A DNA stretch of 64,000 nucleotides from a virus, in IMG/VR virus record IMGVR_UViG_3300032753_001573, positions 91,689 through 155,688 of that record; one strand, 5' to 3'. A program made the position numbers and the translations under genes. Position 1 is the stretch's first letter; each line of letters opens with the position of its first letter. The notes under the pieces were generated by a model, which saw nothing but the letters and a program-made list of their open reading frames with translations, was not told where the DNA came from and searched no databases. This document shows, one piece after another, positions 20,665 through 35,347 of this stretch.

Positions 20665-21192
20665 ATGGCAGAAAAGATAATGATAATTAGGCATGGAGAA
20701 AAACCTGCCAAACATCAAAAAGGCATACTGTCTACAGGTCAAAAAAGCCTAGACAGTCTTACAGTTCGAGGCTGGCAAAGAGCGGGAGCATTGGCACAGA
20801 TATTTTCTCATTCCAACGGTGGTATAGAACCCCCAACTAAATTGTTTGCCTGTTATAAGTCGAAACATGCTCAACGAGCATTGGATACTATTACGCCATT
20901 GGGAGAATTGCTGGGCATACATGTTAACACAGATATACCAAGAGATTCTGAAAAAGAAATGGCTAGAGTTGCTATGAATTCAGAAGGTATTGTATTGATT
21001 GCATGGGAACATAAATGCATACACAAGATAGCCAATCACATAGTTGATAAAAGGCACGTTCCGCAAAAATGGCCAAATGATAGATTTGATATGATATATG
21101 TTTTTGATCGCCAATTAAACGGCGAATATGTTTTCTATCAAGTGCCTCAACTAGCACTCAAAGGTGACTCATCAACGATATTCAAAATATGA
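20665..21192 (+). CDS. histidine phosphatase superfamily protein
   Basis: IIRHGEKP, R...T..PL, LIAWEH. Confidence 0.85.
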   Translation: MAEKIMIIRHGEKPAKHQKGILSTGQKSLDSLTVRGWQRAGALAQIFSHSNGGIEPPTKLFACYKSKHAQRALDTITPLGELLGIHVNTDIPRDSEKEMARVAMNSEGIVLIAWEHKCIHKIANHIVDKRHVPQKWPNDRFDMIYVFDRQLNGEYVFYQVPQLALKGDSSTIFKI

Positions 21193-21253
21193 TATCGTTG
21201 ATGCAAGTCCCGTAGGTTACAAACTCCCACTCTTCTACTGTGTAAATTGCCAT
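21182..21253 (-). CDS. 23-aa microprotein candidate
   Basis: GGAG RBS; MAIYTVEEWEFVTYGTCINDIIF*; last ORF of the minus-strand mini-operon. Confidence 0.35.
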   Translation of the reverse strand: MAIYTVEEWEFVTYGTCINDIIF

Positions 21254-21256
21254 GTG

Positions 21257-21421
21257 TTATCTCCAATTTAGCTGATGGTGTCTTTCCCATTCTCTCTCTA
21301 GTGCTTCTAAATGTACTCTGTCTTGTGCCTGAGATAGGAATTCATACATAGCCTTCTGATGGCGTTCTATCTTTGCTTCTGTACTGAAATGGTACAAAAT
21401 CTTCTTAATCCATGAAATCAT
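21257..21421 (-). CDS. 54-aa DUF3563-like protein (below the ORF-track cutoff)
   Basis: AAGGAG RBS; MISWIKKIL...YEFLSQAQDRVHLEALEREWER resembles the YL+QA.D..DLE.R.R pattern. Confidence 0.65.
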   Translation of the reverse strand: MISWIKKILYHFSTEAKIERHQKAMYEFLSQAQDRVHLEALEREWERHHQLNWR

Positions 21422-21477
21422 TTCATAGTCTCCTTTGTGTTAGGGCTGCAATTTTTATGCAGCCCTTTGAGTAATAA

Positions 21478-21771
21478 TTACTTGTTCCAGTTGTTAACAG
21501 AACCGGCCCAATTTGCCCAAGTCTTAGCAACTGTGTCGTTTAGCTGGCGAACCTGCTCAGCAAAGTTTGATAAACCATACTGCTTGGCTATCTTGGTGTT
21601 TGCCTCAGTTACAGCTTCTCCAAAGCTTACAAAATCCTTCAAAGTCTTGCTGCTAGCCTCTGTGAGGTTATAGGTTAGCTTGCGATTGAACTCGGTAGCG
21701 GCTTCGCCAATTGCCTTGAGATTGAAGACATCTTCCTGTGTCTCTGTTGTGGTATCTGTAGTCTTGGTCAT
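21478..21771 (-). CDS. phasin-like amphipathic helical protein
   Basis: 97 aa, Ala/Thr-rich, helical-looking, no Cys or Pro; GAGGAG RBS; TGC-N3-GCA palindromes upstream. Confidence 0.5.
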   Translation of the reverse strand: MTKTTDTTTETQEDVFNLKAIGEAATEFNRKLTYNLTEASSKTLKDFVSFGEAVTEANTKIAKQYGLSNFAEQVRQLNDTVAKTWANWAGSVNNWNK

Positions 21772-21826
21772 GTTAAGTCTCCTCGATAATTGAGCAGTGG
21801 GTTCTTCCCACGCTTATAGTGTATGG

Positions 21827-21866
21827 TATTTATTGTTGCAGTGCAACATAAATTGTGCATCGCACA
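21827..21866. promoter_or_regulatory. TAAATA late-type promoter (minus strand) with two PhaR-box-like palindromes
   Basis: TATTTA at 21827-21832; TGTTGCA-G-TGCAACA at 21834-21848; TGTGC-ATC-GCACA at 21854-21866. Confidence 0.6.
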
Positions 21867-21904
21867 TGCATTGACAGCATACCAGGTGTGTTGTAATATG
21901 TGTT

Positions 21905-22252
21905 ATGGAACAGGAAGAGATTGAGAAACATATCTATCAACTTAATCAGAGCATAAGATCTCTGTACAAATTTGAAATAAACAAAAAAGCCAAGAACCAT
22001 AGTAACTATTATGAATGGCAAACTTGTATAGATGAGTTAGGAGCAAAAGTCTTAATCTCTATGAAGAGTGGGCTTCCTCATAACGAGTGGATGATAATTT
22101 CACATCCAAATTATAAAGTATATTTTCATAGAACATGGCCTGATTATGATAAAACTGGCGCCGATAGAATACTTGGCAGTTTGAAATTTAGTTGGGTAGG
22201 AGATATGAATCTGATGAAGCAGCACAGCATTTTTATGCAACTAAAAAACTAA
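21905..22252 (+). CDS. hypothetical protein
   Basis: TTGACA-N17-TAATAT at 21871-21899; ATG 5 nt later. Confidence 0.6.
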   Translation: MEQEEIEKHIYQLNQSIRSLYKFEINKKAKNHSNYYEWQTCIDELGAKVLISMKSGLPHNEWMIISHPNYKVYFHRTWPDYDKTGADRILGSLKFSWVGDMNLMKQHSIFMQLKN

Positions 22253-34783: not shown

Positions 34784-35347
34784 TTAACTTAATTTTAAAT
34801 TGATAATATCAGCAGTTTGCTGATTCAATACAACCTCGTAATGATTTACCTTGAGGTCTATTAGTTCTATATCTTGTCTAGCTCGTTGACTAGACACAGT
34901 AACTACTCCGTCGTTAGTCCCAATTATCCACGGGACACTACCTGATATAGTTACTACATTGCACCAAGGCCATTTTATTGCTACTTTGCTGGCATAGCTA
35001 AATGGCCAGCTAGTTGGTCCAACGTCGTGCAATAGCTGGTACCACGGTAATATAGCTTTGGCATAAAATGGAATATGATGACCACCATACGGTGTTGAAA
35101 GTGTAACTCCGCCAGTTACCTTAGTTCCAAAATAATCTGCTAGATGCAGCGCATATATTCCGCCTAGGCTATGTGCTATAAATTGCATGTCTTTTAGATT
35201 TGATAAATCGCTCTTCATCATTTCTAGATTATTCTCAAATCCTCGATGACTGTCGTATGAAACCAGTATGCCATCTCCGCATTTGCTGCGTATGTAATTC
35301 CAACTGTTAACGGTGGCATTGGCACCGTGAATATAAACTTTTGCCAT
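34784..35347 (-). CDS. alpha/beta hydrolase
   Basis: YIHG, AHSLGG nucleophile elbow, NDGVV, NHYE. Confidence 0.88.
   Translation of the reverse strand: MAKVYIHGANATVNSWNYIRSKCGDGILVSYDSHRGFENNLEMMKSDLSNLKDMQFIAHSLGGIYALHLADYFGTKVTGGVTLSTPYGGHHIPFYAKAILPWYQLLHDVGPTSWPFSYASKVAIKWPWCNVVTISGSVPWIIGTNDGVVTVSSQRARQDIELIDLKVNHYEVVLNQQTADIINLKLS

Follow-up and report, generated by a model that had tools for sequence, protein, structure and literature searches.

Putative PhaR-type operators in front of a small operon of an uncultured jumbo phage: a possible link to the carbon reserve of the host

In many soil and freshwater bacteria, a large share of the cell carbon is stored in granules of polyhydroxybutyrate (PHB), and a short piece of phage DNA raises the question of whether a lytic phage can sense this reserve and direct proteins to it. 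The locus concerned belongs to IMG/VR record IMGVR_UViG_3300032753_001573, which is 155,688 bp long and of which a 64,000-nt stretch (bases 91689-155688, henceforth the window, in whose own numbering positions are given) was analysed. It comprises an operon of three small genes on the minus strand, fronted by two adjacent palindromes that look like binding sites of PhaR (also named AniA), the bacterial repressor of the genes for phasins, the proteins that coat PHB granules. A first-pass annotation, made from the letters alone, had proposed that this is a phasin-like operon placed under the control of host PhaR. As argued below, it is reasonably likely that host PhaR gates the operon, probably a late unit encoding three small proteins, through the two operators, and the proteins are probably made only when the host contains PHB; the phasin part of the proposal has fared less well.

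The main features of the locus are the following.

21831-21851 (no strand): putative proximal operator, core TGCAGTGCA at 21837-21845, with a perfect 7-1-7 palindrome at 21834-21848
21850-21870 (no strand): putative distal operator, core TGCATCGCA at 21856-21864, with a palindrome at 21854-21866
21827-21833 (minus strand): T4-type late-promoter-like element AATAAATA, 63 nt before the ATG of the 97-aa gene
21478-21771 (minus strand): open reading frame (ORF) of 97 amino acids (aa), preceded by a GGAG Shine-Dalgarno sequence
21257-21421 (minus strand): 54-aa ORF, a remote relative of DUF3563 (PF12086)
21182-21253 (minus strand): 23-aa micro-protein ORF, starting MAIYTVEEWEFVTYG...

The three-gene arrangement is as first described, since all three ORFs (97, 54 and 23 aa) are found at these places both in the sequence and in the list of ORFs. 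All three are conserved as proteins in related phages and are therefore considered to be real genes.

Two boxes and the promoters that flank them

Both palindromes singled out in the first pass, TGTTGCA-G-TGCAACA and TGTGC-ATC-GCACA, are present at the positions listed above. A standard against which they can be judged comes from Sinorhizobium meliloti, where the AniA/PhaR site WNWDDNYGCRNYGCRNHHWNW was verified by electrophoretic mobility shift assays with mutated sites (PMC12542648). The promoters of phaP1 and phaP2 each contain two copies of this site, separated by 18 and 28 bp, respectively; most other PhaR targets in this species are tabulated with only one, and the regulator controls many genes that are unrelated to granules (PMC12542648). 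Related motifs have been published for PhaR of Ralstonia eutropha, YTKNTGCRNYGCANMAR (PMC12849132), and for PhbF of Herbaspirillum seropedicae, TG[N]TGC[N]3GCAA (PMC3206438). The proximal box of the window fits the 21-position S. meliloti pattern at 21/21 positions and the distal box at 20/21; both boxes also fit the R. eutropha and H. seropedicae motifs, the proximal one being an exact match to the latter. When at most one mismatch is allowed, the S. meliloti pattern occurs at four sites in the 64 kb of the window, against 12.4 +/- 3.4 expected, and two of these four are the adjacent pair; across the whole record there are 17 such sites, with no others adjacent to one another. The bare core TGCNNNGCA, for its part, shows no enrichment in the window (24 observed, 26.7 expected). 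As a side observation, the full PhaR pattern is rarer in the window than in shuffled sequences, and the phage may avoid stray PhaR sites.

Bacterial phasin promoters provided a second standard. A symmetrised position weight matrix was derived from 60 boxes lying upstream of 30 Phasin_2 genes, themselves taken from 61 Hyphomicrobiales genomes. When the 155,688-bp record was scanned with this matrix, the proximal box ranked first (22.7 bits, for a training median of 19.9) and the distal box second (15.5 bits); the third-best site in the record reached 12.5 bits, and the best scores obtained in 20 shuffles ranged from 11.9 to 19.8 bits. The layout is telling as well. At least two YGCRNYGCR boxes are found within 300 nt upstream of 27 of the 30 real phasin genes, box spacings in these promoters cluster at about 20-23 and 30-32 bp, and most proximal boxes begin 57-110 nt upstream of the ATG. 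In the window, the two cores begin 74 and 93 nt upstream of the ATG, at a spacing of 19 bp, which reproduces the phasin-promoter layout of two or more boxes, separated by about two to three helical turns and placed within about 110 nt of the start. Elsewhere in the window, a single weaker PhaR-like site (12.5 bits) was seen at 35139-35159, inside the ORF 34784-35347 on the minus strand. Other regulatory elements were considered by eye and set aside: the upstream activating sequence of NifA needs TGT-N10-ACA and the gap here is N9, the spacing does not fit the -24/-12 elements of sigma-54 promoters, and a CRP site (TGTGA-N6-TCACA) was likewise dropped.

The first pass had made its proposal hang on whether the boxes are kept in front of homologues in other phages, and they are. 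Two boxes were found in 10/10 loci with readable upstream DNA, namely the window and L003, L007, L009, L010, L063, L064, L065, L066 and L105. In this phage family the boxes are spaced by 18-21 bp (31 bp in L065) and the proximal one lies 56-79 nt before the ATG. They are the best matrix matches in each of the related loci; in L009, one of them is the single best match and both are off by one base. The protein identity among the box-bearing homologues is only 30-42%, and the invariant columns of the alignment coincide with the GC pairs of the box cores. The reading of both palindromes as PhaR-type operators is thus borne out by sequence, number, spacing, position and conservation. One of the related loci, L065, has a further single PhaR-like site (15.8 bits) about 2.5 kb downstream of its family gene.

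The promoter that these operators would control calls for some revision of the original description. The TAAATA hexamer that had been named as the promoter is present (as the reverse complement of 21827-21832), but a putative T4-type late promoter is a better reading for it than a sigma-70 -10 hexamer. Late promoters of T4 have the sequence TATAAATA and are read by gp55. There are 39 copies of NATAAATA on the two strands of the record, 30 of which lie within 90 nt upstream of a gene and in the sense orientation, whereas 5-27% of the copies of control 7-mers of the same composition were upstream of genes (non-overlapping genes were used in this test). These copies, typically found 27-60 nt before the ATG, show the behaviour of a genome-wide promoter element, and the motif is under-represented overall when compared with 7-mers of the same composition. 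The core of the proximal box sits 3 nt upstream of ATAAATA in the window, and in all relatives (T/C/A/G)ATAAATA or CTAAATA is found 3-4 nt after the proximal box. With a T4-type late promoter at this position, the operon would be best read as a late unit whose promoter abuts sites for a host repressor.

On the far side of the boxes, the operator region is shared with a gene transcribed in the opposite direction.

21871-21899 (plus strand): sigma-70-type promoter of the divergent gene, with TTGACA (21871-21876), a 17-nt spacer and TAATAT (21894-21899)
21905-22252 (plus strand): divergent 115-aa protein with a conserved RTWPDYD...GADR motif, sharing the operator region and syntenic in all relatives

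This promoter was recovered by a scan with 10/12 matches. The second palindrome, which had been said to abut the -35 of the divergent gene, ends 4 nt before TTGACA. The distal box lies 6 nt from the -35 hexamer with its centre near -45, and the divergent gene may therefore be co-regulated. TTGACA is present beside the distal box in six of the nine relatives, and L007 has CTGACT. The ATG of the divergent gene follows the -10 hexamer by 5 nt and has no Shine-Dalgarno sequence, so that the mRNA is probably leaderless; the layout in L003 is alike (6 nt). In L007 (L007:3527-3964), the called start of the divergent gene (145 aa) crosses the operator region, the true start probably lying some 50 nt inside, where the relatives have theirs. 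No family or DNA-binding domain was found for the 115-aa protein in Pfam, PHROGs or the ESM Atlas.

The three proteins of the operon

An idea of what the operon might be for comes from its second gene. The 54-aa proteins of the phage family (alignment A2) have a mean column identity of 61% and an invariant motif EFLSQAxDRxHLExLExEW, and they had been called DUF3563-like. This call has stood up well to a comparison of the phage family with 12 bacterial DUF3563 proteins, done with hhalign and with hidden Markov models (HMM). The hhalign probability was 76.7%, with E = 2e-5 over 48 columns, versus 0.2% for a reversed control. The HMM of the bacterial proteins gave 11.5-25.7 bits for eight of the nine phage proteins (4.6 bits for that of L009) and at most 5.6 bits for the reversed forms, the protein of the window scoring 15.1 bits and its reversed form 0.4. 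In Pfam itself there is no match for the 54-aa protein of the window, the gathering score of PF12086 not being reached, and the relative found in L110 scores 16.4 bits against PF12086 (E = 0.009, for a cut-off of 26.9).

In bacteria, DUF3563 was matched in 1/151 Alphaproteobacteria and 10/401 Pseudomonadota sampled, and 14 bacterial loci were gathered. Four of these 14 have a PhaR box of at least 18 bits in promoter position, and control bacterial DNA contained zero sites of this strength in 60,690 positions. In two loci (L115:150-1671 in genome G540 and L116:230-1674 in genome G275), the box (21.1 and 21.2 bits) is followed by an Esterase_PHB gene, of the PHB depolymerase family (E = 6e-112 and 2e-87), and then directly by the DUF3563 gene, and in L118 and L120 a box (18.0 and 18.9 bits) is found about 35-55 nt before the DUF3563 gene itself. 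These arrangements suggest that the PhaR regulon of some bacteria includes DUF3563. Since the phage 54-aa protein is homologous to DUF3563, the operon would hold a relative of a family that is sometimes part of the PhaR/PHB regulon.

The same gene is met in other surroundings. A search of IMG/VR with the 54-aa family returned 18 loci, of which L105 is the full module. In L110 (L110:1380-2470, from IMGVR_UViG_3300022602_000130), a box, TATAAATA and a second box stand directly before the DUF3563-like gene, and downstream lie genes for a divergent micro-peptide, for an unrelated helical protein of 103 aa and for a protein of 139 aa that has a hydrophobic helix at its N-terminus and a tail rich in Lys, Ala and Pro (AAKPK/KKPR). 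The boxes of L110 occur without the divergent gene seen in the window, and a same-strand UvdE gene adjoins them.

Is the product of the first gene a phasin? The first pass had thought so on account of size, composition and context, but homology to phasins could not be demonstrated, reversed sequences scoring equally well. Membership in Phasin_2 (PF09361) was rejected, the Pfam score being 13.1 bits (E = 0.11) for a cut-off of 24.9, with one other member of the 97-aa family reaching E = 0.018. Profile comparison by hhalign gave a probability of 1.6% when the family was set against 30 real phasins and of 5.3% against about 55. With an HMM of phasins, members of the family did take the first five ranks among 847 phage ORFs. 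Reversed family sequences, however, reached 15.1, 11.9 and 10.1 bits versus 12.4, 8.9 and 7.7 bits for the real ones, and this signal therefore reflects composition and helical periodicity. Other searches were no more revealing. According to an exhaustive phmmer search, the family (80-101 aa) is found only in related phage contigs. A tblastn search of phages with the 97-aa protein gave nothing relevant, a word-index search in phages matched the protein to itself only, the family profile (A1) found no relative in IMG/VR, and a profile search of PDB sequences returned repeat and designed helical proteins only. Conversely, a real phasin had no tblastn match in 50,697 phage records and no clear PHROG.

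What the 97-aa protein does share with phasins is its physical character. It is all-helical, amphipathic and Ala/Thr-rich, and two AlphaFold2 models show three helices at a predicted local distance difference test (pLDDT) score of 54-60; with such a low-pLDDT helical model, Foldseek found nothing in the PDB at E <= 0.001. Its helical hydrophobic moment is 0.347 (family mean 0.337), close to the 0.350 of the 30 real phasins, whereas other ORFs of similar length in this phage average 0.211, the protein being second of 202. Ala amounts to 13.6%, versus 15.2% in phasins; Lys, Glu and Phe are likewise abundant in both, while Leu, Arg, Pro and Cys are scarce. In the ESM Atlas, the closest clusters are auto-named 'phasin family protein' (score 0.91, 157-159 shared features), and the closest ones with a Pfam family have Phasin_2, PHB_acc or PHA_synth_III_E, which should be taken as a lead only in either case. 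The 97-aa protein may therefore be analogous to a phasin in function without being a member of the family.

Two structured elements surround the first gene.

21772-21826 (minus strand): 5' leader, with a short GGG...CCC stem-loop and a GGAG ribosome-binding site
21442-21466 (minus strand): intercistronic stem-loop between genes 1 and 2, with no U-run on the operon strand

The leader stem-loop, just downstream of the promoter element, is predicted in six of eight related loci with differing sequences; its position, as opposed to its sequence, is kept in the window, L003, L007, L009, L010 and L063. The hairpin already reported between the first two genes was recovered with the stems GGGCTGCA (21443-21450) and TGCAGCCC (21458-21465) and an N7 loop, and has a minimum free energy of -18.3 kcal/mol (z = -4.6). 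A GC-rich stem of 9-13 bp is present between genes 1 and 2 in 8/8 related loci, although the sequences are unrelated, and a sense-strand U-run is absent. On the opposite strand (21442-21470, plus strand), the hairpin is followed by TTTG (TTTT in L003), and this plus-strand hairpin could also terminate transcripts from convergent genes, which in that case would run antisense through the 54-aa and 23-aa genes. As for the micro-protein, a conserved peptide M(A/W)(I/P)YT(V/E)EEW(E/D)F(L/V) is encoded immediately downstream of the 54-aa gene in L003, L007 and L010, the MWPY start alone is kept in L066, and L110 has a more divergent copy, MWPYTDEEADFL... The whole operon is embedded, in related metagenomic phage contigs, in a syntenic block that runs MazG, glycosyltransferase, a 94-aa protein, the operon (in the order micro-ORF, about 55 aa, about 90 aa), the divergent protein of about 115 aa, Smr and QueD/PTPS.

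A proposed circuit and its competitors

Which phage and which host are involved bears on any mechanism. Among the products encoded by the record, which has a CheckV completeness of 36% and a G+C content of about 40%, are ClpX-like proteins, an rIIA-like protein and a split topoisomerase II. For the large subunit of the latter, the nearest counterparts are found in Sinorhizobium phage Phosso (469 kb), at 56% identity, and in Agrobacterium phage Atu_ph07 (490 kb), at 52%, and the record is therefore taken to be a fragment of an uncultured jumbo phage. The host is harder to name. The PhaR core is common to Alpha- and Betaproteobacteria, and the exact 21-mer of S. meliloti phaP1 was found at 12 loci in genome contigs, at least five of them adjoining Phasin_2 genes and Gammaproteobacteria being included; the exact joined string of both phaP1 boxes had no match in genome contigs. 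The boxes therefore do not fix the class of the host, and an alphaproteobacterial host is not established. The scarcity of DUF3563 in the Alphaproteobacteria sampled hints, weakly, at another class.

In the mechanism that we infer, PhaR binds the boxes, expression depends on PHB and the products are targeted to the granule. In a host without PHB, free PhaR would occupy both boxes and the late promoter would be blocked, while in a PHB-rich host PhaR would be retained on the granules and the operon would be expressed. The stem-loop after gene 1 would probably stabilise or partly terminate the message, and the 97-aa protein is proposed to be made in excess as a result. Beyond the gating itself, the claims become more tentative. 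That the products act at the PHB granule, with the 97-aa protein as a phasin analogue and the DUF3563 partner borrowed from the PhaR regulon of the host, is a possibility we would entertain but not yet lean on. Somewhat more doubtful again is the complete scenario, in which a clade of lytic jumbo phages senses PHB via PhaR and thereby gates three late-made, granule-directed proteins, the phasin analogue, a DUF3563 protein acquired from the PhaR/PHB-depolymerase regulon of the host and the micro-protein, which would coat, protect or mobilise the granules.

A number of observations weigh against this account. The cultured relatives Atu_ph07 and Phosso have neither the module nor paired boxes (their isolated PhaR-pattern matches number four and three, respectively, versus two in controls). 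The families of PhaR, PhaZ and PhaC were not found in the 155-kb record, which is 36% complete, and in a genome of this completeness a phage-encoded regulator could be what binds the sites. A host that bears PhaR and makes PHB is assumed. The assignment of the promoter is contested by a TAyAAT hexamer, 3-4 nt downstream of ATAAATA, that could be a sigma-70 -10 element, in which case the -35 element would be supplied by the left half of the proximal box. To our knowledge no repressor of a T4-type late promoter has been described, and the blocking of such a promoter by PhaR is for that reason a conjecture. The first gene, as seen above, is no demonstrable phasin. Lastly, 16 of the 18 IMG/VR loci of 54-aa relatives have no strong PhaR box within 1.5 kb, and in at least one T4-like contig (L096:1001-1650) a DUF3563-like gene of 49 aa shares an ATGA overlap with the stop codon of an Hsp20 gene. 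A similar coupling to Hsp20 is likely in L098-L104, the identity of Hsp20 having been verified for L096 only. With most phage relatives devoid of boxes, a link to PHB is therefore not inherent in the DUF3563-like protein, and PhaR control appears as a trait of particular phage lineages and not of the whole DUF3563-like family, which leaves room for products that have nothing to do with granules.

In this alternative, PhaR does gate the operon but only tells the phage about the state of its host (carbon in excess, nutrients limiting), and the products act elsewhere, with roles in stress protection, in the timing of assembly or lysis, or in membrane or protein handling. Such roles would sit well with a 97-aa protein that is not a phasin homologue, with DUF3563-like genes that elsewhere lack PhaR boxes or, in L096, are translationally coupled to Hsp20, with the many non-granule genes under PhaR control in S. 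meliloti (PMC12542648) and with a late promoter that resembles those of many other genes in the record. They fit less easily with a two-box layout that is the one found before 27/30 phasin genes, other S. meliloti targets having mostly a single site, with bacterial DUF3563 genes that adjoin PHB-depolymerase-family genes behind PhaR boxes, and with a 97-aa protein that equals true phasins in hydrophobic moment and composition and comes second of 202 phage ORFs. Although unlikely on this evidence, products acting away from the granule deserve to be kept in mind.

The identity of the regulator and the very nature of the boxes can be questioned too. The boxes might be an ordinary phage operator pair, bound by the divergent 115-aa protein or by a PhaR-like gene product encoded in the missing 64% of the genome. 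They do lie between divergent promoters and in the family are always accompanied by the divergent gene, which is probably leaderless, as some phage repressor genes are, and which has a weak PHROG match to a 'DNA binding protein' family (E = 0.015), in a genome that is incomplete. Neither Pfam nor the ESM Atlas, however, reveals a DNA-binding domain in the 115-aa family, no match to PHB_acc_N exists in the record, and the boxes of L110 are found beside UvdE with no divergent gene. Moreover, the sites mirror host phasin operators down to their AT-rich arms and spacing classes, which a phage regulator would have no reason to copy, and a phage-encoded regulator is accordingly given a low probability. 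We regard as very improbable that the palindromes are not protein operators at all but fortuitous matches, hairpins of the RNA or DNA, or the remains of a captured host phasin promoter that has ceased to regulate. It is true that TGCNNNGCA alone occurs in the window no more often than expected and that the distal palindrome was picked up by a terminator scan as a weak 5-bp hairpin. With their short length and AT-rich flanks, however, the stems are unsuited to be terminators, and they lie upstream of the promoter element. Chance or relic status would have to account for the top two matrix scores in 155 kb being adjacent, for their being kept in 10 phages whose proteins are 30-42% identical, and for invariant columns that fall on the GC pairs of the cores.

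Relation to known circuits and significance

With gating by host PhaR as the preferred explanation, the module is best placed by comparison with what is known. In sequence and layout it is a PhaR-phaP circuit. As in S. meliloti, where PHB titrates the repressor according to the published logic of the phaP circuit (PMC12542648), a YGCRNYGCR palindrome with AT-rich arms is present in two copies near the core promoter of a gene for a small amphipathic protein, and the spacing of 18-19 bp is that of phaP1. The phage version differs in being phage-borne, in having a putative T4-type late NATAAATA in place of a host sigma-70 promoter, in a first gene that is not Phasin_2 and is followed by two more small genes, and in operators that are predicted. 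The same differences apply to the betaproteobacterial circuits of R. eutropha PhaR and H. seropedicae PhbF, whose core motifs fit the boxes of the window and which act on phasin promoters via sites around the -35 element and the transcription start (PMC12849132, PMC3206438). What is new relative to the PhaR-phaP circuit is therefore the combination of a lytic jumbo phage, a promoter of T4 late type, a non-homologous amphipathic protein, a DUF3563 relative and a micro-protein.

At the level of the parts, likeness and difference are similarly mixed. The phage 54-aa proteins align with bacterial DUF3563 over nearly their full length, with an N-terminal hydrophobic helix followed by YL..A.D...LE.R, and some bacterial members are PhaR-boxed or come after a PhaR-boxed Esterase_PHB gene; unlike them, the phage proteins fall below the Pfam cut-off and most phage relatives have no PhaR boxes. 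The 97-aa protein resembles Phasin_2 (PF09361) in its length of about 100 aa, all-helical prediction, hydrophobic moment, composition and upstream operator layout, but has no detectable homology to it. The promoter element is like T4 late promoters in being an 8-bp AT-rich element with no recognisable -35 that is enriched upstream of the genes of this phage, and unlike them in that a pair of host-repressor operators abuts it. We know of no other T4-type late promoter with abutting operators for a host repressor. The closest precedent for the logic is perhaps found in cyanophages, where pstS and phoA genes sit behind host PhoB boxes. There, too, a lytic phage wires an auxiliary gene to a nutrient-sensing regulator of the host via the DNA site of that regulator, but the signal is phosphate and not stored carbon, and the genes are clear homologues of host genes.

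Searches of the literature at hand returned no paper linking phages with PhaR or phasins and none describing this module. If the boxes work as read here, a lytic phage borrows a host repressor to make part of its late programme depend on the carbon reserve of its host. Since the host should encode PhaR, the operators would also give a handle for host prediction. Three matters are made testable by this locus, namely the sensing by phages of the storage state of their host, the control of a T4-type late promoter by a host repressor and the function of DUF3563. Should the complete scenario prove true, this would be the first module of a phage to target a carbon-storage organelle of bacteria, and DUF3563 would have its first proposed function.

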